DNA of 64,000 nt from Candidatus Acidiferrum sp. (GTDB lineage: Bacteria > Acidobacteriota > Terriglobia > Acidiferrales > UBA7541). Position 1 is the stretch's first letter. The number at the start of each line of letters is the position of its first letter. The stretch spans positions 13,927 to 77,926 of the forward strand of contig DATLVZ010000005.1 in NCBI GenBank assembly GCA_035576885.1, read 5' to 3'. Position numbers and translations under genes: made by a program. Positions 30,998-44,643 of the stretch are shown here, piece after piece. The notes beneath the pieces are model-generated. The model had not been told where the DNA came from, made no database searches, and worked only from the letters and a program-made list of their open reading frames with translations.

Positions 30998-31537
30998 CTA
31001 ACCCTCCGGCCAGGCGCCGAGAGCGCGGCGTAGGTCCACGAGCTGACCCAGGTGATAGGCGTTGTGGTCCGCGAGAAGGAGCGCTTCCCGTAGAATAGTT
31101 TGCCCCTGGCCGTGGGGGATTTTGGCGAAAAGATCCGTGTGCGAATCTTGCACCAGATGTACCATCTCCTGCAGGTCGCGCTGGAAACCCGCGACGCTTT
31201 CGTTCCACGCTTTAACATTGGCAGGCGCCGGGGTTTTTGGCCAGTATCCTCCCGGAAAATCCGGCGAAACATGTTCTGGATTTTTGCTGAAATCCACGAT
31301 GTCCCACTGGGCGAGACGCGCATGCTCGAGCAGTTGCCAGCCGGTATGAGGCAGGCCATTCGCGTACGTTCCGTGTTTCCCGGCCGGGAATCCTTCTAGG
31401 GCATCCATGAAATGAACGTGCGCGCCCCCGCCTTTTAGAAGGTAGACGAGCTGCTCGCGCAAATCTCTATCTGCATTGCGAGGCGGCTTTGAGCTAGTTT
31501 TTCTTGTAACTTTCTTGGATGTTTTTTTCTTTTTCAT
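30998..31537 (-). CDS. DinB-family protein with a lysine-rich N-terminal tail
   Basis: No Cys residues. C-terminal ADHNAYHLGQLVDLRR resembles a DinB_2 metal-binding histidine motif. The N-terminus MKKKKTSKKVTRKTSSK is encoded by an A5GA7 tract. ATGA overlap with the upstream O-methyltransferase gene. Confidence 0.6.
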   Translation of the reverse strand: MKKKKTSKKVTRKTSSKPPRNADRDLREQLVYLLKGGGAHVHFMDALEGFPAGKHGTYANGLPHTGWQLLEHARLAQWDIVDFSKNPEHVSPDFPGGYWPKTPAPANVKAWNESVAGFQRDLQEMVHLVQDSHTDLFAKIPHGQGQTILREALLLADHNAYHLGQLVDLRRALGAWPEG

Positions 31538-32562
31538 TCTGGTTTTCCGGAGAGCAAGACCTGCTGGGGCATTCCCAGCACTGGGTGCAAGGTAGTTTTC
31601 GCAAATCCCGCATTTGCAAACATTTTTTCATATTCCGAAAGTGTATAGGCGTCCCCGGCATCAGTCCCCACGAGCATGTTGAGGCTGAAGGCCGCAGCGG
31701 CCGGCGGAGTCACACGGTCTTCATTAGGAACAAACTCGAGAGTGACGGCTTTTCCACCAGGTTTGAGCGCCGCATGGACGCGCCGCATCAATTTCTCGCA
31801 GGTTGGCTGATCGAAATGATGAAAGATATTCGTGAGCAGTACAAAATCGTAGCCCGTGCCCAGATCCGTCTCGAAGGCGCTCCCAGGACGTGCGATGTAA
31901 CGATCGGACACACCGGCGGTTTTTGCATTCTCGACCGCCACGGCTAGCACGGAAGGCCAATCCACGGCGACAATTTGCGCGTTTGGATTTTTCTTGGCGA
32001 TGGTGATGCCGTAGTTTCCGTGCCCTGCGGCAATATCCAGAACCCTGCAAGGTTTTCCTTCCGCAGCACCGATGAGGCCGGCGATGAAATTGGCGGCCGG
32101 TATCGTCAAAGGCGCCATCGACCTCGCGAACGCCACCCAGACGTCATCCTGCGGCTTGGTGTTGTCTCCCTGCACTCCAGCCGTCCCGCCTTTGCGCACC
32201 GCTCCGGTCAGAGCTTCGACATTTTTCTTGTGCCAGGGGCTGGCGAGAAAGCCAGTTACACTCGCAAGACAAGCTGGTGAGCGCCGGTCGAGAAAAAGTG
32301 CGGACTCTTCGGTCAACGAGTAGCGTCCTTCTTGTTTCGCCAGCAATCCCATGATCGTCAAGAAATCGCATAGGATGCGGACTCCGCGCTCGGAAGAGCT
32401 GATCTTCGCGGCAAGAAGAGCCGAGGTATTAGCCCCCGCACCGATAGCCGTGAAGACGTCCAGTTCAATTCCTGTTTTCAAAGCTTCGGTCTGCTGGAAA
32501 GCATTCATGAAAGTAAAAATGCGTTCCGGGGTCGGCCGATTTGTAGTGGATGGTGTCGCCAT
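31534..32562 (-). CDS. Class I O-methyltransferase (dimerisation domain plus Methyltransf_2 type)
   Basis: VLDIAAGHGNYGITIA (motif I) and VAVDWPSV...LLTNIFHHFD. 342 aa, the size typical of small-molecule O-methyltransferases. Confidence 0.7.
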   Translation of the reverse strand: MATPSTTNRPTPERIFTFMNAFQQTEALKTGIELDVFTAIGAGANTSALLAAKISSSERGVRILCDFLTIMGLLAKQEGRYSLTEESALFLDRRSPACLASVTGFLASPWHKKNVEALTGAVRKGGTAGVQGDNTKPQDDVWVAFARSMAPLTIPAANFIAGLIGAAEGKPCRVLDIAAGHGNYGITIAKKNPNAQIVAVDWPSVLAVAVENAKTAGVSDRYIARPGSAFETDLGTGYDFVLLTNIFHHFDQPTCEKLMRRVHAALKPGGKAVTLEFVPNEDRVTPPAAAAFSLNMLVGTDAGDAYTLSEYEKMFANAGFAKTTLHPVLGMPQQVLLSGKPE

Positions 32563-33471: not shown

Positions 33472-34335
33472 TTACGACCACAGGTGCAGCCGAAGAGGCC
33501 TGTCGAGTTGAAAGCGAATCACCGATTCCGCGGGCACATGGACTTCTTTGCCACGCGTGATGATTTGCGCCGCCGCGCCGGCCCCGGCGCCGGAGGCCGC
33601 GCCAATGGCTGCGCCCCTGCCGCCGCCTGCAATGGCCCCAATGACCGCTCCGAGGACCGCTCCGCCGCCTACATATTCACCCGTCCGTCTGTTGCCTCCC
33701 ACCCCATCGCGACGATTCTGCAGTTCTTGATCCGCAGTGCTCACGCGATAGCGGCGTCCGGCCACCGAGATGGATTCTACGTCCAGCGTAATATCTCCAT
33801 TTGCCTCGAGTCGCCGCGTAATCAGCCTTACATCCGAGCCCCTGGGGATTACGACCGAGCCATTTTGGTCGCGAATCTCTTCACTTAACTGCGCCGAAAA
33901 CGTCTGTCCTTCAACCACGTCTCGCGAATCGATGCGCTCGTTGACCCTCACGTCCACTTCGGTGCCTGCGGGGATTACCACCCTTTCCAACGCCGCCTGA
34001 TCGTAGCCGCGGTTATCCTGCCTGCCATTCTGTTGGTCGTTGCCGTTGCCCGGATTATCCTGATGTCCGTAACCTTGGTCGTTTCGATGCTCTTGGCCAT
34101 CGTAGGGGTCGGGGGTGTCGCCGAAGCGCACAGCCACAACGTCAGTTACGAAATAACGACGTTGACCGCCCCTTCGGTCTCTAAACGTTATTGTTCTGGA
34201 GTTTGCCCCGATCAGCGTCCCCGAATAGCGTGTCCCGTCGCGCAGTATCAGCGTATCGCCCAATGCAGGTACGGCCACCGCAGCCGCCATAAGCGACGCG
34301 ATTAGTGCTGCTCTCGTTCCCAGTTTCAATGACAT
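33472..34335 (-). CDS. Secreted hypothetical protein with a low-complexity Q/N/G-rich linker and a C-terminal glycine-zipper
   Basis: Signal peptide [26 protein letters not shown]. Glycine-zipper [34 protein letters not shown]. Confidence 0.5.
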
Positions 34336-34743
34336 TTTCGTAGACCTCTCCGTTTTGAGTGTTGGCCCTATCGTCAGCCTGACCAAAGTAGAAAAATTCA
34401 GTGGTCCCGATTTTCAAGATCCGATGCGCGTGCGCATTTTCAGTGAGTTCGACCACCTCGCTGCTCGGGCCTGCGGCACTGCATTCAAGCAAGCATGTCC
34501 TTTTTCGAAGCGTCGCGCTGTCCCATTACGCACACATCAACCGGCGAAGTCTTCGACCTTCCTCAGTCCACGCAAGCGCCGCCTCGTCCTGTTTCGTGTG
34601 ATTCGAGCGAGTAACGGAGACGTTTCTTTGGCGTGAGAATCTGGTGGTCCGAGCCAGGCGCTCACCGAGAGTTGACAGGCGGCTACGCGGCTCGGATGCT
34701 CGTAGCCTAGCGATCGATGGAAGAGAACTTGCGGAGGGGCGGC

Positions 34744-36165
34744 ATGAAGTCGCGCGGGATCATCTGTTTTGGGATTTGTGTTTTGACGGTTACTGCTGCG
34801 CCGCTACGCGCTCAAAAACGAAGGGATGTTCAGTTCTGGCTTACCAATGCCGACAAATCCGCCCTCTTTGAGCCACAGACTCCCTCGCTGTATTTTTCCG
34901 GGGCCCCGAGCCGGGATTCCGCAGAAAAGCCCGCGATCATCATCAATGATCACAAGAAATTTCAGACCATCGACGGGTTCGGGTTTGCGCTGACCGGCGG
35001 CAGCGCCCAGCACCTCGCGCACATGGACCCCGCAAAACGTTCGGCTCTGCTTCAGGAACTCTTTGGCGTGGATCGCAAAAACATTGGGATCAGCTATTTG
35101 AGGATCAGCATCGGCTCCTCGGACCTGAACGATCATGTCTATTCCTACGACGACATGCCTTCTGGCCAGATGGATCCTGCACTGGCCAAATTCAGTCTCG
35201 ATCCGGATCGAGCGGAAGTAATCCCTGTTTTGAAAGAAGTTCTGGCGATCAATCCAAAGATTCAAATACTCGGCTCGCCGTGGTCGGCGCCCGCCTGGAT
35301 GAAAACGAATGAGAACTCCAAAGGAGGAACATTAAGACCCGAATATTACGAAACGTATGCAAAATATTTTGTGAAATATGTTCAAGGCATGAAAGCCGAG
35401 GGCATCAAGATCGACGCAATCACGATTCAGAACGAACCACTGAACGGCAAGAATACGCCAAGCATGCTGATGCCCGCGGAAGAGGAAGCACTCTTCATCA
35501 AAGACTACTTGGGACCTGAGTTCAAGACCGCGAAATTACATACCAAGATCATTCTCTACGACCACAACTGCAACGTCCCGGGCTATCCGATCTCGATTCT
35601 CAAGGACGCTCGCGCGCATCGCTACGTCGATGGATCTGGCTTTCATTTATATGAAGGCAAAATAGAGGCCATGTCCGAGGTGCACGACGCTTTTCCTCGC
35701 AAGAATTTGTACTTCACGGAATACATGGCCGCTGAGCCCACGGAAGGCTCAAGGATTTCGATCGCGAAGCCTGTCGTAAAGACATTTATCGGAGCGCTTC
35801 AGAACTGGAGCCGCAACGTTCTGCTTTGGAACCTCGCCGCCAATTCCAAATTTGAGCCGCATACCGGCAATGGAGGCTGCCCGATCTGCCAGGGGGCGGT
35901 GACCATCGATGGGAATGAAGTTACGAGGAACTTGGCGTACTATGCGATGGCACACTTTTCGAAATTTGTCCGGCCGGGTTCGGTGCGCATCGGTTCCAGT
36001 TCCCCGGCCACTCTTCCGAACGTCGCATTCAGGGCGCCCGGCGGAAGGCTTGTGTTGATCGTCGCGAATGACGGGAAGGCCGCGCAAGATTTTGTGGTGC
36101 GATCCCACGGCAAGTCTTTCAAAACCACCTTGAAAGAAGGAGCGGTGGGAACGTATGTATGGTAG
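34744..36165 (+). CDS. Secreted glycoside hydrolase family 30 (glucosylceramidase / beta-1,6-glucanase-like)
   Basis: Signal peptide MKSRGIICFGICVLTVTAAPLRAQ. GFGFALTGGSA...GSPWSAPAWMK...AITIQNEP (acid/base Glu context)...YFTEY. Confidence 0.7.
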   Translation: MKSRGIICFGICVLTVTAAPLRAQKRRDVQFWLTNADKSALFEPQTPSLYFSGAPSRDSAEKPAIIINDHKKFQTIDGFGFALTGGSAQHLAHMDPAKRSALLQELFGVDRKNIGISYLRISIGSSDLNDHVYSYDDMPSGQMDPALAKFSLDPDRAEVIPVLKEVLAINPKIQILGSPWSAPAWMKTNENSKGGTLRPEYYETYAKYFVKYVQGMKAEGIKIDAITIQNEPLNGKNTPSMLMPAEEEALFIKDYLGPEFKTAKLHTKIILYDHNCNVPGYPISILKDARAHRYVDGSGFHLYEGKIEAMSEVHDAFPRKNLYFTEYMAAEPTEGSRISIAKPVVKTFIGALQNWSRNVLLWNLAANSKFEPHTGNGGCPICQGAVTIDGNEVTRNLAYYAMAHFSKFVRPGSVRIGSSSPATLPNVAFRAPGGRLVLIVANDGKAAQDFVVRSHGKSFKTTLKEGAVGTYVW

Positions 36166-36218
36166 CAGGAAATCATGTCGAGATCAGGCAGTCGAGGAGG
36201 CGGCAAGTGAACTTAAGA

Positions 36219-38996
36219 ATGGTGAGCAGCCGATCTGCGATGGCTGTAGTTCTGGCGTGGGCTGCGGCCATGGCCTCCCCGCTGTTGCTCAACGCGCAAA
36301 CAGAAGCGCCGCTGGCGGCAACCCATCTGCGCTGCGAATACATGGTCGATCCGCTGGGGATAGATGTGAGGAAGCCCCGGCTGAGCTGGGAGTTAACTAG
36401 CGCGGAAAAGGGAGTGATGCAGACGAGCTACGAAGTGCGTGTAGCGGCCTCGGAAGAGGAGTTGGCGAAAGGAAAACTGATTTGGGATAGCGGGAGGCAG
36501 GCGTCGGACTCGTCGATTCAGGTGGAATACGGCGGTCCCGCGCTCGCGAGCGAACGGATTTATTTCTGGCAGGTGCGCGTGGCGGACAATCACGGACATT
36601 TGTCGGAGTGGAGCAGGGCAGCGCGCTGGGAAATGGGTTTGCTCGAGGCCGCGGATTGGAAAGCCAATTGGATTACGCCAAATGTTCCCGAGGATGAGAC
36701 CAAGTCGAACCCTTCGCCGATGTTGCGAAGTGAATTTTCCGTGAAGAAAAGAGTCGAACGTGCGCGGCTCTATGCGACGGCGATGGGTCTTTACGAACTG
36801 TCTCTAAACGGCAAGCGCGTGGGCGACCAGTACTTTACTCCGGGTTGGACGGCCTACGATTTTCGCTACCAATATCAGACCTACGATGTGACCAGCCTAG
36901 TGAAGAGCGGAGAGAACTGCCTCGGGGCCGTGCTGGGAGATGGATGGTTTCGCGGCAGGCTGGCGTGGAACAACAGGCGCAACAGTTACGGCAAGAAGCT
37001 GGCGCTGCTCGCGCAACTTGTGATTACGTACACGGACGGGAAGCAAGAGATTGTCGGCAGCGACGACAAGTGGAAAGCAGCAACAGGCGCCATTCTCGAA
37101 TCCGACATTTATAACGGCGAGACCTACGACGCGCGCCTCGAGCGCACCGGTTGGAACGAACCGGGTTACAAAGACGGCGATTGGAAGGGAGTCACGGTCA
37201 TTGAGGCTCCGAAAGCCAAGCTGGTCGCGCCGGCCGGGCCCTCGGTGAAAGAAATCGAAGAAATCAAGCCGGTGAAGGTGTGGCACACACCGGCGGGGGA
37301 TACCGTCCTCGACATGGGCCAGAACATGGTCGGCTGGATGAAGTTCCGCTTAGCCGCGCCTGCAGGTACGACCGTTACTCTGCGCCACGCGGAGGTGCTG
37401 GACAAAGAGGGGAATTTTTATACCGAGAATCTGCGGTCGGCGAAGGAAACGATTCGCTACACCAGCAAAGGTGGCGGAACGGAAACGTTCAAGCCGCATT
37501 TTAGTTTTCAGGGATTTCGATACGTGGCCGTGAGCGGCTGGCCGGGCGAAGTGAAGCCCGAAGATTTTACGGGGATCATTGTACATTCGGCGATGGAGCG
37601 GACCGGGACATTTGAAACCTCCAATCCCATGCTCAACCAGCTCGAGCACAACATCATTTGGGGACAGAAAGGCAATTTTGTGGATGTGCCGACGGATTGT
37701 CCGCAGCGCGATGAGCGACTGGGATGGACCGGAGACGCAGAAGTCTTTGCCCCGACTGCATCCTTCAATTTCGACACGGCCGGTTTTTACACCAAGTGGC
37801 TAAAAGATGTAGCCCTCGATCAGGAAGACGATGGCGCCGTGCCGTTCGTGATTCCGAATGTCCTGTCGCACACCACACGAAAGGGAGAAGCGGCATCGGC
37901 GGGATGGGCGGATGTGGCCACCGTGGTCCCGTGGACGGTCTATCAATCCTTCGGCGACAAGCGAATTTTGGAGGAGCAGTACCCGAGCATGAAGGCCTGG
38001 GTCAAATACATGCGGCGTGCCTCTGGGGAAAGCTATCTCTGGAAGAGTGGATTCAGTTTCGGCGATTGGCTTGCGTTCGCCACGACGCAGTCGGATTATC
38101 CCGGAGCGACGACGGACAAAGACTTGATCCAGACGGCCTACTTTGCACGGTCGACCGAGTTGCTCGCAAAAACTGCTGAAGTGTTAGTCAAAAAGGAAGA
38201 CGCGCAGAACTACACTGCACTCGAGGAAAAAATCAAAAGCGCGTTTCAGAAAGAGTTCGTGACGCCGAATGGCAGGCTTGCTTCCAACACGCAGACAGCC
38301 TACGCCTTAGCTCTGGCGTTTGGCCTCTTGCCTGAATCGCAGCGAGCCGAGGCGGCAGCGCGCCTCGCGGCCGACGTCAGGAAATTTGGCCATTTGACCA
38401 CGGGATTTCTGGGCACGCCCGTCCTTTGCCAGACCCTGAGCGATTACGGCTATCTGGATGAAGCGTACATGCTTCTCAACCGAAAGGAATATCCCTCGTG
38501 GCTCTATCCGGTGACAAAAGGTGCGACCACGATCTGGGAGAGATGGGACGGGATCAAGCCGGACGGAAGCTTTCAAAGTCCCTCGATGAATTCGTTCAAT
38601 CACTACGCTTACGGCGCCATCGGCGACTGGATGTACCGCGTGGTCGCGGGGATTCAGATTGATGAGGCCGCGCCGGGCTATAAACACATTTTGATACAGC
38701 CAAACCCCGGAGGTGGATTGACGCGCGCGAGCGCGTCGGTCGATAGCATGTACGGGCGCGTGGCTTCGGCGTGGGAGATTGCCGGCGGAAAGTTGACGTT
38801 GCGGATTGAAGTTCCGGCGAATGCGACCGCGACCGTACGTTTGCCACACGCCAAGCTGCAGGAAGTGAGCGAGGGCAGGAAGCCTTTGGCGGACCGCTCG
38901 GATATTTCTCAACTGCGGCAAGTCGAAGGTGCCGTTTTGTTGGATGTTGGCTCTGGAAAATATGTTTTTGAGTGCGCCGATTCAAAGACGAAATAG
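36219..38996 (+). CDS. Secreted alpha-L-rhamnosidase, GH78
   Basis: Signal peptide, then YFWQVRV...LYATAMGLYELSLNGKRVGDQYFTPGWT...VDVPTDCPQRDERLGWTGDA...TIWERWDG, the characteristic Bac_rhamnosid blocks. Confidence 0.85.
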   Translation: MVSSRSAMAVVLAWAAAMASPLLLNAQTEAPLAATHLRCEYMVDPLGIDVRKPRLSWELTSAEKGVMQTSYEVRVAASEEELAKGKLIWDSGRQASDSSIQVEYGGPALASERIYFWQVRVADNHGHLSEWSRAARWEMGLLEAADWKANWITPNVPEDETKSNPSPMLRSEFSVKKRVERARLYATAMGLYELSLNGKRVGDQYFTPGWTAYDFRYQYQTYDVTSLVKSGENCLGAVLGDGWFRGRLAWNNRRNSYGKKLALLAQLVITYTDGKQEIVGSDDKWKAATGAILESDIYNGETYDARLERTGWNEPGYKDGDWKGVTVIEAPKAKLVAPAGPSVKEIEEIKPVKVWHTPAGDTVLDMGQNMVGWMKFRLAAPAGTTVTLRHAEVLDKEGNFYTENLRSAKETIRYTSKGGGTETFKPHFSFQGFRYVAVSGWPGEVKPEDFTGIIVHSAMERTGTFETSNPMLNQLEHNIIWGQKGNFVDVPTDCPQRDERLGWTGDAEVFAPTASFNFDTAGFYTKWLKDVALDQEDDGAVPFVIPNVLSHTTRKGEAASAGWADVATVVPWTVYQSFGDKRILEEQYPSMKAWVKYMRRASGESYLWKSGFSFGDWLAFATTQSDYPGATTDKDLIQTAYFARSTELLAKTAEVLVKKEDAQNYTALEEKIKSAFQKEFVTPNGRLASNTQTAYALALAFGLLPESQRAEAAARLAADVRKFGHLTTGFLGTPVLCQTLSDYGYLDEAYMLLNRKEYPSWLYPVTKGATTIWERWDGIKPDGSFQSPSMNSFNHYAYGAIGDWMYRVVAGIQIDEAAPGYKHILIQPNPGGGLTRASASVDSMYGRVASAWEIAGGKLTLRIEVPANATATVRLPHAKLQEVSEGRKPLADRSDISQLRQVEGAVLLDVGSGKYVFECADSKTK

Positions 38997-40142: not shown

Positions 40143-40347
40143 CTATCCTGCACGAAACTCCTCGAGAGTAAACCCGGCGTCTTTAAGGATCCGGAGGAAT
40201 AGTCCCTTTGGCAGGTCATTTCCGCGATGCTGGTACTGTGAGCGTCTTGCGATCGGGATGCTTCAGTATCAGATGGGACCCTGCCTGGCGGGCTTCGACA
40301 TAGCCGTTAGCACACAAAAAGCGAACTAATTCGCGAGCGTTAGGCAT
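40143..40347 (-). pseudogene. hicA: hicA-type toxin gene disrupted by a frameshift
   Basis: ATG 40347 gives MPNARELVRFLCANGYVEARQAGSHLILKHPDRKTLTVP, then ASRK and a stop. Shifting one base at about 40229-40233 restores HRGNDLPKGLFLRILKDAGFTLEEFRAG and a stop. The span is 205 nt, which is not a multiple of 3. Confidence 0.7.
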
Positions 40348-40360
40348 ACCTCATCGTTTC

Positions 40361-40588
40361 TTATTCGATGGCGACAGAAACGGTCTCAGAATAGATCGTG
40401 CGGGCAGCAGGAATCGGTTTGCCATCCTTTTTGCACTCCAGGATGTAAAGCCGAATTCCCTCCAACATGCTGGTCTTTGCTTCTTCGATTGAGTCGCCGA
40501 GGCCATATACGCCCGGCAAGTCTTCACTGTAGGCGTAATACTGCCCATCTTCTCTTTCGATGGAAATCGGATAAGTATAGTGGGTCAC
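40361..40588 (-). CDS. hicB: HicB-like antitoxin (UPF0150, no DNA-binding extension)
   Basis: 75 aa: YPISIEREDGQYYAYSEDLPGVYGLGDSIEEAKTSMLEGIRLYI is a typical HicB N-domain pattern. It lies 13 nt upstream of hicA. Confidence 0.7.
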   Translation of the reverse strand: MTHYTYPISIEREDGQYYAYSEDLPGVYGLGDSIEEAKTSMLEGIRLYILECKKDGKPIPAARTIYSETVSVAIE

Positions 40589-40645: not shown

Positions 40646-42040
40646 TTATGCATTAGCCGTTCGCGGGCTGACGCGGAAGGCTGGAACCTGGCCGCCGCCG
40701 CTGGTCACATTGGCTAGGCCTGTGGCGCTGAGGCGGGTCAAAAAGCCGCAGACTTTTCCACGGAAGAGATAGGGCGCGAAATCGACAAGCATGTCGCGGT
40801 AATCGACTCTGCCAACGTCGGCGATGTAGGGGAATATTTCGCGGCGAATGGGAATGCGCTCTTGGACAATCCACGCGCCATTTTTTGCGGAGAGAGCGCG
40901 GCCGATGGCGGCGTCCCATTCGGCTTCGTCGGTCTCCCAGCCGAGAGTTACGCCGGTGCCGCCGTATTCGTCGCTCGGCTTGAGCACAAGATTTTCTCGC
41001 TCCTTGTCGATAAAGGCGAGAAGCTCGATCGTCTGGCCATAGCGAGCTGTCTTCACGTCGGCCACCACGCGCGTCCACGGGATATGGCGGCGAATGAGTT
41101 CGCGCTCGTCGTGCGAAAAAAGCGCGCCGTTTTGCTCGTCGGTGAGAACCGCGAAGAACGCTTTTACATGCGGGATTTTGCAGCGAAACGTGTTGGCCAC
41201 GCAGACCGCGTTGGCCGTATACGCTCTTACGAGGGCTGCACACTCCGTGGGTTTTGCCACGATGTCATTGATGAGGATGCGGCGGTAAACAAAATCGATT
41301 TTTTTGCCGTGCGCGAAAAGCCGCTGGCCATCGAAGCGGAGTTCGCGCGGATCTGCGAGGACGATGGGGACGCCCAGCTTTTCAAAACGGGCTTTCAGAA
41401 TCTCAAATTCACTCCATGTTGGAACTTCCTTCCAATCCACAATCGCAATTTGCGGAGGATTGGCCGAGCCGCCCCAGTCCTTATAGCTCATCACCAGAGC
41501 ATCGAGGAGTTTGGCGCTGAGCGGATAACTATGAACTGAATAATGCTGCGCGAATTTCCCCATCACCGGAAGCTCGCGAAATATTTCCGCAAGTGTTTCC
41601 GCGTAACCTGCGCCTGCCGGGGATTCTCCGTTGTACTCGGCGAATTTGAGCGAATCCGGCAAGAGGAATGCATCGAGGCGAGACGCGGTGCTGGCGCGGC
41701 CGTAGGCGACAGGGAGGCGGGCCAAGCGCTCTTCCTCGGGACGCAAATGAAATTGGGCAAAGAGATGTTTGTCTTCAAGCGCGGCGGTCACGAGGCGCTC
41801 GCCGAGATCGGCGATGGTTTCCGCAACCGTGCGCACTCGCTCTTCCTCTTCCGGCGAGAGAAAAAACGGACGCAGGAAAGGGCAGTGGACACGGTCGCCG
41901 AAAGTGAGGTTTGCGCGGCGCAGCCTTTTAACCAAGTCTTCCGGGAGAGCGGGAAGGCGCAGGAGCGTGGCCTTCAGGATGTCGGTCCAATCCCCGGCAG
42001 GATTCGGAGGAGTCATCGAAGTTGTCGGCGCGCTAGTCAT
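40646..42040 (-). CDS. ATP-grasp-superfamily amidoligase, glutathionylspermidine-synthase-like / circularly permuted type
   Basis: 464 aa. RLDAFLLPDSLKFAEYNGESPAGAGY (pre-ATP-grasp R.D...E.N...P.G pattern)...NLVLKPSDEYGGTGVTLG...WIVQERIP...SGGGQVPAF. ATGA overlap with the upstream gene. Confidence 0.55.
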   Translation of the reverse strand: MTSAPTTSMTPPNPAGDWTDILKATLLRLPALPEDLVKRLRRANLTFGDRVHCPFLRPFFLSPEEEERVRTVAETIADLGERLVTAALEDKHLFAQFHLRPEEERLARLPVAYGRASTASRLDAFLLPDSLKFAEYNGESPAGAGYAETLAEIFRELPVMGKFAQHYSVHSYPLSAKLLDALVMSYKDWGGSANPPQIAIVDWKEVPTWSEFEILKARFEKLGVPIVLADPRELRFDGQRLFAHGKKIDFVYRRILINDIVAKPTECAALVRAYTANAVCVANTFRCKIPHVKAFFAVLTDEQNGALFSHDERELIRRHIPWTRVVADVKTARYGQTIELLAFIDKERENLVLKPSDEYGGTGVTLGWETDEAEWDAAIGRALSAKNGAWIVQERIPIRREIFPYIADVGRVDYRDMLVDFAPYLFRGKVCGFLTRLSATGLANVTSGGGQVPAFRVSPRTANA

Positions 42041-43080
42041 TTTGCTTTGGGTTCTGGCGATGGCGAAGAGAAGCTCGCAGCCGGACGGGGCGCCGATGAT
42101 TGGCCAGCTGCTATGCTCTTGGGCGTGCCGGTAAATCCACTGGCCGCGCCAACTCCGAGCATTTCTTCCCATCGGGGCCAGGGATTCGAAGCATCGCCTT
42201 GGAGCGCGCGGTCGATGACCAGCCGGGCCATCTTATCGACAACGTGCTCGAAATAAAATTCAGAGATGCGGTCGCGTTCAAAATCCGGAGCAGGGTTCAA
42301 GAAATCGATGGCATAGGGGATGCCATCCTGGACGGCGAATTCGATGGTATTCATCTCGTAGCCCAGGGCTAGATTGATAGTCTGCGCATCCTTCACAACG
42401 CGGGCTCCAAGTTCGGAAGACAAATACTTATGATCGACGAGATACTTCCGCTCCTTGGGATCGTAGTGAACTGGCAGAATATCGGATTTTCCAAACGTGA
42501 AGCAGCGGACGTATTGCGTAAAGTCGACGTACTCCTGAAGGGTCATGCAATAAGGCGAGGTCTTGTCGTAGGCGGCGAGGAGTTCTTCCTTATTATGGAC
42601 TTTGTAGACGTGTTTCCAGCCTCCTCCAGAAAAAGGTTTGAGAATGGCGGGGCGTCCGACGTAATCAAGCAGTCGTTCCCAGTCGACCGGATACTCGAGG
42701 TTGTGCAGCGATTCAGAAGTGATGTCCACATCGCTGGGATATCCTTTTTGCGGCAACAAAACCGTTTTCGGAATAGCGATGCCAAGTTTCGCAGCGACAG
42801 CGTAATTGAAAAATTTGTCGTCAGCGGTCCACCAAAACGGGTTATTGATGACGTAAGTTCCCTGGAGTACCGCATGCTTAAGGTAGCCGCGGTAATATTC
42901 GACCTCGTGCGAGATGCGGTCCACAATGACGCGATAGCCGGAGAGTTCGCCCATACGCGTCCCGCCAAGCTTTACAAATTCCGCCGCAACGCCATCTTTC
43001 TTTCCCAGCTCATTGACTCGCACGATAAAGGCCGGAGGAAAGCTGTACTCACGCCCGCAGAGAAGGCCAATCTTTTTCAT
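42037..43080 (-). CDS. ATP-grasp domain protein (RimK / glutathione-synthetase-like ligase)
   Basis: 347 aa. NPFWWTADDKFFNYAVAAKLGIAIPKTVLLP...GRPAILKPFSGGGWKHVYKV...EYVDF...YEMNTIEFAV...YAIDFLNPAPD. Confidence 0.6.
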   Translation of the reverse strand: MKKIGLLCGREYSFPPAFIVRVNELGKKDGVAAEFVKLGGTRMGELSGYRVIVDRISHEVEYYRGYLKHAVLQGTYVINNPFWWTADDKFFNYAVAAKLGIAIPKTVLLPQKGYPSDVDITSESLHNLEYPVDWERLLDYVGRPAILKPFSGGGWKHVYKVHNKEELLAAYDKTSPYCMTLQEYVDFTQYVRCFTFGKSDILPVHYDPKERKYLVDHKYLSSELGARVVKDAQTINLALGYEMNTIEFAVQDGIPYAIDFLNPAPDFERDRISEFYFEHVVDKMARLVIDRALQGDASNPWPRWEEMLGVGAASGFTGTPKSIAAGQSSAPRPAASFSSPSPEPKAK

Positions 43081-43129
43081 GCTGTCGCTCCTACAGGTGA
43101 TGCAGAGACCTGACGCCGTGCAGATGCCT

Positions 43130-44263
43130 CTAATTGATGGCGTGAGCCGATGAAGTCCGTGATTCAGCGACGCCGCGCGTTTCAGCGACCAGGTGCTTAA
43201 CAACCGCTTTGAGATCGCCTGTTTGCTGATAGACGCGCAATTGGCGTTCCGCGCTCGTGCCGTCCTTTAGAATCGTGTGGACGTATTCAACGGCGCTGCG
43301 GCTGCCAAGATCGTCCACGACGTCGTCTACAAAATCGAGCAACTCAAGCGCCAGTTCTCGCATGGGGACCTCGGCCTCCTTGCCGAAATCGATCAGCTTG
43401 CCTTCAATGCCATAGCGGGCGGCGCGCCATTTATTTTCTTCGATCAAGGCGCGCCGGTACAGGCGATAACTCTGGTTGCGCTCGTAGAGGCGGTGCAGCT
43501 TCACGATGATGGCTTGGGTGAGAGCCGCGATGGAAACCGCTTCTTCGACCTTCGTCGTTACGTCGAACATGCGAAACTCGAGAGTACCGAACATCGGGTG
43601 CGGCCGCACATCCCACCAGATTTTTTTCCCGTTGTCGATGCAGTTGAGTCTCACGAGGAGATTCACGAAGTCTTCATAGGCGCTCCAGGACTCGAATTGC
43701 TCCGGGATGCCGGTTCGCGGGAAACGGCGGAACACAGTGGTCCGGAAAGATTTCAATCCGGTGTTACGCCCCATCCAGAAAGGGGAACTCGTCGAGAGCG
43801 CGAGCAGGTGCGGCAAGAAGTAGCGGACCATGTTCATCATGTCGATGGTGGTCTGTTTGTCGGGCATCGCGACGTGAACGTGCATGCCGAAAATCAAGAG
43901 GGAGCGGGCGAGTTGTTGGAGCTCTTCGACGATGTGTTCGTAGCGTTCGCCGGGCGAAATGACCTGGTCAATCCAGCTGGAAAATGGGTGTGTGCCAGCG
44001 GCGGCAACCTGCAAACCAACGCGTTCGGCGGCAGCAACAAGCTCCCCGCGCGTACGGTGCATTTCGATGCGCAACTCGCCGACGTTCTCGCAGATTTTTG
44101 TGCCAGTCTCGACGATGGATTGATGCATTTCGTGTTTAACTTGGTCAACTATGTCGGGCGAAGCGGCGGAGACAAGTTGCATGACATGGGAGCGCAGGGC
44201 GCAGGTAGCGGGGTCAATGATCTGGAATTCTTCTTCAACGCCGATAGTGAAGCGGTGAGCCAT
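43130..44263 (-). CDS. Carboxylate-amine ligase, glutamate-cysteine ligase family 2 (YbdK-like)
   Basis: MAHRFTIGVEEEFQIIDPAT...AAGTHPFS...LLIFGMHVHVAMPD...LLALSTSSPFWMG...WWDVRPHPMFGTLEFRMFD. GGAGGG lies upstream of ATG 44263. Confidence 0.8.
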   Translation of the reverse strand: MAHRFTIGVEEEFQIIDPATCALRSHVMQLVSAASPDIVDQVKHEMHQSIVETGTKICENVGELRIEMHRTRGELVAAAERVGLQVAAAGTHPFSSWIDQVISPGERYEHIVEELQQLARSLLIFGMHVHVAMPDKQTTIDMMNMVRYFLPHLLALSTSSPFWMGRNTGLKSFRTTVFRRFPRTGIPEQFESWSAYEDFVNLLVRLNCIDNGKKIWWDVRPHPMFGTLEFRMFDVTTKVEEAVSIAALTQAIIVKLHRLYERNQSYRLYRRALIEENKWRAARYGIEGKLIDFGKEAEVPMRELALELLDFVDDVVDDLGSRSAVEYVHTILKDGTSAERQLRVYQQTGDLKAVVKHLVAETRGVAESRTSSAHAIN

Positions 44264-44532: not shown

Positions 44533-44565
44533 ATAAAAAGTGGGACAGACACTCGTGTCTGTCCC
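44533..44565 (-). terminator. Intrinsic terminator downstream of the zinc-ribbon gene
   Basis: On the minus strand, GGGACAGACAC/GTGTCTGTCCC (inverted repeat of up to 11 bp, 44542-44565) is followed by ACTTTTTAT. Confidence 0.65.
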
Positions 44566-44643
44566 ATCGGATGTCCTGCTCGAATGGCCCGTTGGAGCTG
44601 ACTTCTAGTCCGCGGCTTCGAGCCGCGACGTAACGCCGCGACG

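Follow-up and report, generated by a model that had tools for sequence, protein, structure and literature searches.

A recurrent set of three amide-bond ligases and two hydrolases in Candidatus Acidiferrum: a candidate route to a small peptide or peptide-amine conjugate

Several described systems build small molecules with free-standing ligases that form amide bonds, and a number of them resemble a gene set found in Candidatus Acidiferrum sp. (Acidobacteriota). The set lies in a stretch of 64,000 nucleotides, hereafter the window (GenBank assembly GCA_035576885.1, contig DATLVZ010000005.1, positions 13,927 to 77,926 of the forward strand). It comprises three ligase genes and two hydrolase genes. 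The ligases are GCS2, a carboxylate-amine ligase of the YbdK type, ATPg, a predicted classical ATP-grasp ligase, and CPg, a circularly permuted ATP-grasp ligase; the hydrolases are an M29-fold metallohydrolase (M29) and an alpha/beta serine hydrolase (Est).

The nearest precedent is itself a prediction. Gene neighbourhoods centred on ligases of the PF14403 type were reportedly predicted by Iyer, Abhiman, Burroughs and Aravind in 2009 (in Mol Biosyst 5:1636). The prototype of the Pfam entry is RoseRS_2616 of Roseiflexus, with a predicted part in small-peptide synthesis, and its neighbours include a GCS2-like ligase, two peptidases (one an alpha/beta hydrolase, the other of the M20 type) and a GAT-II amidohydrolase. 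Measured against this description, the window's set has in common the PF14403 ligase, the GCS2 ligase, the alpha/beta hydrolase and the predicted role. It differs by a further ligase from an unmodelled family, ATPg, almost always placed directly upstream of CPg, and by its peptidase, which is of the M29 type or GATase1-like, not M20 or GAT-II. A full-text literature search found no experimental characterisation of the PF14403 family. The set belongs to this predicted, experimentally uncharacterised kind of amidoligase system, and relative to that description the constant ATPg partner and the M29-type hydrolase are additional.

Better known are the pathways to glutathione and its conjugates. 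Eukaryotic glutathione synthetase is a circularly permuted ATP-grasp enzyme, and glutathione biosynthesis, in which GshA (GCS) is followed by glutathione synthetase, likewise pairs a ligase of the GCS superfamily with one that CPg resembles. However, CPg resembles glutathione synthetase and GspS in fold, with a sequence identity of only 14-16%, the glutamate--cysteine ligase models stay below cut-off for the GCS2 protein, and the third ligase and the two hydrolases have no counterpart in that pathway. GspS and YgiC/YjfC join the C-terminal carboxylate of a peptide to an amine. The GspS/trypanothione synthetases and YgiC/YjfC share the fold of CPg, in which an R-x-D...E-x-N motif is invariant, with the spacing of the Mg/acyl-phosphate site of GspS. 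In contrast to GspS, CPg has no match to PF03738 (GSP_synth) at E <= 0.01, and neither a CHAP amidase domain nor any other extra domain. As for YgiC/YjfC, we know of no reported GCS2, ATP-grasp or hydrolase partners.

Two more systems deserve comparison. The routes to E-64 (Cp1B, then an amide-bond synthetase) and to dapdiamide (DdaF/DdaG) also employ successive free-standing ATP-dependent ligases, and in cascades of this kind an acid, an amino acid and an amine are combined into a pseudo-tripeptide. Among the structural neighbours of CPg is Cp1B, which couples epoxysuccinate, a carboxylic acid, with an amino acid, while YgiC/YjfC are peptide-spermidine ligases (PMC12568646). The E-64 and dapdiamide clusters have a narrow distribution and include tailoring enzymes, whereas the present set is highly conserved, very abundant and without tailoring genes, and therefore looks more like core metabolism. 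The last system, CP_ATPgrasp_1/Alpha-E/transglutaminase (with or without Anbu), is a peptide-synthesis or tagging system known only from genomic prediction (PMC5666114, PMC3597751). Of all solved sequences, that of its member 3n6x comes closest to CPg (E 1e-9 with a CPg profile against the PDB). Even so, CPg scores 23.0 bits against PF04174, just under the cut-off of 23.1, and no Alpha-E, transglutaminase or Anbu gene was seen in any locus examined or in the clustering of neighbours, so this identity was rejected. Since the defining features of both were looked for and found lacking, the set stands outside the GspS family and outside the Alpha-E/transglutaminase system.

What, then, does the set produce? 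The reading we favour, and hold to be moderately probable, is that the three ligases and two cytoplasmic hydrolases make a small peptide or a peptide-amine conjugate, independently of the ribosome and of nonribosomal peptide synthetases. An earlier note on this DNA, drawn from the letters alone, had described three consecutive ligase genes on the minus strand, and the layout is as it described, from the motifs to the spacing of the genes (Table 1). GCS2 is preceded by a GGAGG ribosome-binding site. Between it and the ATG of ATPg (at 43080) lies a gap of 49 nt, which contains an AGGAG ribosome-binding site, and the stop codon of ATPg overlaps the start of CPg (ATG at 42040) as ATGA. Upstream, a strong terminator-like hairpin read from 44566 to 44541 closes off the gene of a zinc-ribbon protein, and thus the unit begins at GCS2. 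A riboswitch or other known RNA was rejected, as no Rfam match was obtained in the window, and a simple scan found no sigma-70-like promoter. A look for RNA sequencing runs gave none over this region.

Table 1. Features of the gene set and its surroundings. Coordinates refer to the window, except in the last row, where they refer to the loci named.
Feature	Coordinates	Strand	Remarks
Double zinc-ribbon protein (zf_Tbcl + CxxC-x17-CxxC), 101 aa	44644-44949	minus	upstream of the operon
Terminator-like hairpin	44541-44566	minus	11-bp stem, 6 G-C pairs, then CTTTTTAT
GCS2/YbdK-type carboxylate-amine ligase, 377 aa	43130-44263	minus	first gene of the operon
ATPg, predicted classical ATP-grasp ligase, 347 aa	42037-43080	minus	family without Pfam or NCBIfam model
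CPg, circularly permuted ATP-grasp ligase type 2 (PF14403), 464 aa	40646-42040	minus	
hicB antitoxin gene	40361-40588	minus	PF15919, E 6e-8; intact
hicA toxin pseudogene	40143-40347	minus	same insertion as hicB
M29-fold metallohydrolase, 341 aa	39078-40103	minus	last co-directional gene; PF02073
Rhamnosidase-family protein, 945 aa	36159-38996	plus	named via the Pfam annotation of the corresponding gene of locus L001
Secreted protein, 482 aa	34717-36165	plus	unclassified
Gly-zipper protein, 304 aa	33472-34386	minus	YMGG Gly-zipper match sub-threshold
Est, PF00756 alpha/beta serine hydrolase, ~243 aa	32704-33435	plus	fifth conserved member, displaced
O-methyltransferase	31534-32562	minus	beside Est
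DinB_2 protein	30998-31537	minus	24.4 bits against a cut-off of 24.8
GATase1-like substitute family, ~365-390 aa	L070:9361-10503, L072:9326-10453, L077:9379-10521, L087:9717-10892, L089:13607-14728, L091:12092-13189		

The protein of the first gene, whose N-terminus reads MAHRFTIGVEEEFQIID, had been taken for a YbdK-type GCS2 ligase, and classification with hidden Markov models (HMMs) agrees. It scores 209.6 bits against PF04107 (cut-off 21, E 8e-62), 522 bits against the NCBIfam model NF010039, 'carboxylate-amine ligase' (cut-off 371), and 307 bits against TIGR02050 (cut-off 176); YbdK of E. coli (1r8g) matches it at E 9e-53. All six NCBIfam 'glutamate--cysteine ligase' models remain below their cut-offs (389 against 409, for example), and only the generic carboxylate-amine ligase models pass. 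The GhExE signature of the superfamily, as defined in PMC2588565, corresponds here to GVEEE at residues 8-12; across 82 sequences it is for the most part retained. YbdK has gamma-Glu:Cys ligase activity according to Lehmann 2004, as that work is cited in PMC2588565.

CPg, which includes RLDAFL...KFAEYNGESPAG, had been read as a GspS-like or circularly permuted ATP-grasp enzyme, and it does classify as such. Its match to PF14403 (CP_ATPgrasp_2) is a marginal pass, at 32.6 bits against a cut-off of 32.0, and most of its homologues have precomputed PF14403 matches. The AlphaFold2 (AF2) model is of high confidence (pLDDT 92.7, pTM 0.91). In a Foldseek search, with matches that extend along the whole length of the model, the human, yeast and plant (homo)glutathione synthetases came out best (TM-scores 0.65-0.69), followed by E. 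coli GspS, Mfla_0391 (3n6x), YgiC/YjfC and the E-64 ligase Cp1B; against 2hgs, 8fbz, 3kal, 2io8 and 3n6x the TM-scores are 0.63-0.69, with E values of 1e-15 to 1e-17. Residues R121, D123, E135 and N137 are invariant across 48 diverse homologues. The closest homologues, 90-93% identical, are labelled Candidatus Acidiferrum/Acidoferrum.

ATPg is a different matter. No Pfam family matches it at E <= 0.01, and no precomputed Pfam domain is recorded in the 120 ATPg homologues listed. Its match to TIGR00768, the RimK family, reaches E 7e-9 at 35.4 bits, below the cut-off of 143.4, and because no curated model is reached above its cut-off the protein falls outside every modelled subfamily. A profile of the ATPg family finds Ddl (3r23) in the PDB at E 7e-6, with the acidic, acidic and Asn positions of the Mg ligands aligned. 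Within the family an LKP...GGGWK motif, E247, D259 and N262 are invariant, and the latter three residues are those that align with the Mg ligands of Ddl. With the AF2 model, Foldseek returns Ddl, LysX/ArgX, RimK and MdnB/C, at probability 1.0 and E 1e-10 to 1e-11 over more than 310 columns. The sub-threshold RimK match, the Ddl profile match and these fold matches are the grounds on which ATPg is placed among the classical ATP-grasp ligases, in a family that has no model; the claim that the second gene encodes an ATP-grasp protein stands on the same three. About 38 residues at the C-terminus (42037-42150) form a disordered tail rich in Ala, Pro and Ser, the coding sequence of which runs into the ATGA overlap with the start of CPg. 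The tail is very variable in length: distant orthologues have none, and in some homologues it gains up to about 60 residues.

Each of the three ligases classifies and retains its catalytic residues, and each looks competent for catalysis. But do they act on small molecules at all? C-terminal glutamylation of the RimK type, the LysW/LysX carrier and Pup-like tagging are examples of how ligases could modify a protein or a ribosomal peptide, with hydrolases to reverse the modification. The fold neighbours of ATPg would suit such a role, as LysX/ArgX and RimK are among them and so are MdnB/C and PsnB, which are graspetide cyclases; the Pup ligase PafA belongs to the GCS2 superfamily (PMC2588565); and the zinc-ribbon protein encoded upstream has weak LysW-like matches. 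Nevertheless, protein modification seems unlikely. The closest structures to CPg all act on small molecules, and no conserved small open reading frame (ORF) or carrier gene accompanies the set in more than 150 loci. When the small ORFs that lie within 330 nt 5' of GCS2 were compared between the window and 24 related loci, no common sequence emerged. The zinc-ribbon protein was itself rejected as a LysW-like carrier: it has no acidic C-terminus (it ends RRALGAA), its gene is found only in closer relatives and at varying distances, and the terminator cuts that gene from the operon. The earlier note had seen no substrate peptide gene, Alpha-E or transglutaminase partner, and none emerged beside the set in the window or in the related loci examined.

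The RimK-family match, weak as it is, raises a further thought. Could the product be a poly-amino-acid, a storage or protective polymer made as RimK makes poly-glutamate or in the manner of cyanophycin, with the hydrolases as depolymerases? The presence of two hydrolases and the high abundance of the families in soil metagenomes would both be compatible with this. However, the characterised enzymes of the CPg fold form a defined small-molecule amide bond, not a polymer, and no polymer-specific gene is conserved nearby, which makes a polymer very unlikely.

The reading of a small peptide or conjugate gains most from the company that these genes keep. A CPg profile run against species-representative genomes gave 80 loci, for the most part labelled Acidobacteriota (Acidoferrales, Vicinamibacteria); the lowest CPg identity among them is 54%. 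Of these loci, 75 contain GCS2. Complete genomes with the set include OY969563.1 and OY969555.1. Where sequence is available on both sides (65 informative loci), the window's order GCS2>ATPg>CPg is found in about 64, all Acidobacteriota, and M29 follows within 1.2 kb of CPg in 54; the earlier note had M29 as the next gene on the same strand, and across the loci it is indeed the conserved next gene. In the most distant loci CPg is at 54-60%, yet the identity of GCS2, ATPg and M29 there is still about 70-80%.

Beyond these loci the order changes while the families stay together. Among ten further CPg homologues, 37-44% identical, the families are arranged differently: a Chloroflexota contig has ATPg>CPg>GCS2, an Armatimonadetes metagenome-assembled genome has CPg>GCS2, and Est>ATPg>CPg>GCS2 is found among distant clades and ATPg>CPg>M29>Est in locus L092. 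A metagenome scan seeded on ATPg added 80 loci with two main layouts, that of the window and one in which all genes point the same way, Est>ATPg>CPg>GCS2. CPg lies directly 3' of ATPg in 48 of the 55 metagenome loci with room for it, and the gene directly 5' of ATPg is Est (30) or GCS2 (18) in 48 of 54. With room on both sides (35 loci), ATPg, CPg and GCS2 occur together in 28 and Est in 27. The proteins, strongly conserved within Acidobacteriota, are also found in contigs attributed to Chloroflexota, Armatimonadota and Eremiobacterota. In all, the arrangement is repeated in well over 100 independent loci, far beyond chance. The conservation of the trio as a unit, which had been proposed as a test, thus extends across the classes of Acidobacteriota, and in other phyla the order is shuffled.

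One could argue that these genes are neighbours by descent only and serve unrelated processes, as the fixed order within Acidobacteriota could mirror shared ancestry and some CPg genes stand alone. Against this, distant clades have the same families grouped in no fewer than three gene orders, and ATPg and CPg overlap as ATGA. Families that remain together while their order changes are a standard mark of functional coupling, and mere descent has hardly any probability left.

Two hydrolases complete the set. The M29 protein (341 aa) is shorter than typical M29 enzymes, a family that comprises aminopeptidase T, AmpS and PepS, and matches the C-terminal half of the PF02073 profile (40.9 bits, cut-off 27, E 1.5e-10, profile positions 202-353 of 406 only). 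Residues E192, E264, H290, H310 and D312 are kept in all but a few of 69 sequences, within the motifs GEVF, GELAFGTN, GVHIAFG and THVD. Its nearest solved sequence is NicX, a dioxygenase (E 1.7e-5), and in the alignment the H-x-D of the M29 protein pairs with H-L-D of NicX, with Glu264 opposite a His of NicX. The mapping of these residues follows the metal-ligand numbering of M29 and NicX. The identity of a NicX-type dioxygenase was rejected, as Glu replaces the NicX His and the full ligand set of the peptidase type is retained; from these residues, a peptidase or amidase is preferred over a dioxygenase.

Est matches PF00756 at 39.2 bits (cut-off 22), and the window's copy matches the HMM of the Est family at E 6e-148. 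The Ser (GASFGA, a GxSxG elbow), the Asp and the His (HDWP) of the triad are conserved across 110 sequences, and no signal-like hydrophobic stretch is visible at the N-terminus of the translation. In the window Est stands 5.6 kb from M29. Among the genome loci it is present in 58 of 80, usually abutting M29 and convergent with it, and it accompanies M29 where M29 is displaced; it is co-directional with ATPg in L088, L091 and L092 and in 30 of 54 metagenome loci. The earlier count of three ligases with one peptidase was therefore right about the ligases and one short in the hydrolases: Est had been missed, and because it is conserved as a fifth member the set consists of three ligases and two hydrolases.

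In four Vicinamibacteria-like loci without M29, the slot after CPg is held by a protein of about 380 aa, and the same protein adjoins GCS2 in L087 and L089. In its family CHTFG and NHHPE are invariant, a pair of Cys is present in the N-terminal part, and a PGM1-like ATP-grasp sometimes follows. Pfam and NCBIfam give no match and the best PDB match is at E 1.4; the motifs suggest a class I amidotransferase or a C26-like hydrolase with a Cys-His-Glu triad.

This substitute invites another explanation, a catabolic or detoxifying gamma-glutamylation like that of the Puu or Ipu pathways, in which an amine is captured on glutamate, processed and then released by hydrolases. Its two invariant motifs are similar to the Cys-His-Glu triad that class I glutamine amidotransferases and C26 gamma-glutamyl hydrolases of the PuuD type have, and the set does have two hydrolases. 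On the other hand, the GATase1 identity is motif-based, with the database results just given, and neighbour clustering yielded no conserved oxidase, dehydrogenase, aminotransferase or transporter. No conserved regulator, tailoring enzyme or small gene emerged from it either. Three separate ligases also exceed what such pathways use, and we consider a catabolic role quite unlikely.

How would a small peptide or conjugate be assembled by these enzymes? Each ligase would phosphorylate a carboxylate with ATP, and an amine would then attack the acyl-phosphate. GCS2 would activate a carboxylate in a side chain, most probably the one at the gamma position of glutamate, and join it to an amino acid or an amine. 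CPg, like glutathione synthetase, GspS and YgiC/YjfC, would activate the C-terminal carboxylate of the growing peptide and add an amino acid or a polyamine. ATPg, translationally coupled to CPg and almost always directly upstream of it, might make the acceptor unit or add a further residue in a step adjacent to that of CPg, with which it is possibly in complex. The two cytoplasmic hydrolases may remove an N-terminal or protecting residue, or else trim, proofread, recycle or degrade the product. We infer that the enzymes share a single pathway, in what order they react, that synthesis starts from a gamma-glutamyl unit and what the hydrolases do. By analogy with characterised families, the order might, as the earlier note proposed, run from gamma-Glu-X to a tripeptide and then to an amine conjugate, and the product might be a thiol of the glutathione or trypanothione kind.

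A number of observations weigh against this reading. The sequence of the set does not reveal the substrates, and a full-text literature search yielded no assayed member of the ATPg or CPg families. The AF2 model of ATPg is of only medium confidence (pLDDT 68.7), for which reason the TM-scores of its fold matches are low (0.31-0.41), and some of the neighbours so found (LysX/ArgX, RimK, MdnC) have proteins or peptides as substrates. Some distant CPg homologues are solitary (L085, L090, L093) and others have no adjacent GCS2 (L086, L088, L092), so that the trio is not obligatory everywhere. Finally, Est is usually convergent in the Acidobacteriota loci, and there it lies outside the ligase transcript.

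A more ambitious idea is that Acidobacteriota, Chloroflexota and other soil phyla that are poorly cultured make wide use of the product as a new peptide cofactor of low molecular weight. It could, for instance, be a gamma-glutamyl thiol or a peptide-polyamine redox buffer, for which the hydrolases would provide a turnover cycle. We give this a small chance only; if true, the cofactor would have a standing comparable to that of glutathione, mycothiol and bacillithiol. A link to anti-phage defence was also considered and rejected, as PADLOC gave no match for any of the five proteins.

Whatever the product, the families are very abundant in soil metagenomes. The search for ATPg homologues returned at least 8000 candidates, all scored at E <= 1e-5, and the CPg family comprises 3749 clusters at 50% identity. 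Its identification would put a name to a metabolite that is probably widespread among the dominant bacteria of soil, assign substrates to two ligase families that have none assigned and offer three stand-alone amide-bond enzymes for biocatalysis. Should the product be a thiol or a polyamine conjugate, it would matter for the response of these phyla to redox or metal stress. Specialists in amidoligase genomics will not be surprised by the set itself; its interest lies in its abundance in major soil phyla.

Some features of the window do not belong to the set. The hicBA cassette, which had been called an insertion, occupies this position in only about 7 of 83 related loci, all close relatives, and since it is confined to these it is a lineage-specific insertion between CPg and M29; it is outside the pathway. 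Relative to the intact 68-aa hicA gene of L001, the window's copy has a deletion of 2 nt near 40231/40230, and the frameshift leads to a stop at 40218-40216, after 43 codons, which leaves HicB without an intact HicA. A block of genes at 33472-38996 parts M29 from Est, its usual neighbour, and looks like an insertion of glycoside-hydrolase genes into the conserved set. The zinc-ribbon protein upstream of the operon contains an internal run of seven glycines.

Beside Est, the pair of O-methyltransferase and DinB_2 genes recurs in about 20 related loci, and a DinB protein is encoded directly 3' of a stand-alone CPg homologue in L085 and L093. Proteins of the DinB fold include thiol transferases. 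The association may be a faint hint of thiol chemistry, or equally the synteny of a lineage.

The set itself has variants. In L086 (744-4532; labelled Candidatus Xenobia), a pair of paralogous CPg genes flanks M29 as CPg>M29>CPg, and the 8-kb contig has neither ATPg nor GCS2. In 12-16 loci (for example, L048, L050, L053, L054, L057 and L060), and with no counterpart in the window, the set is adjoined by another PF00756 esterase (122 bits) and, directly after it, a fourth ligase of the ATP-grasp kind (PF02222 + ATPgrasp_N), as at L055:9239-11337; in L096 and L102 this second esterase is present without the ATP-grasp. The additional pair repeats the pairing of an esterase with an ATP-grasp protein.

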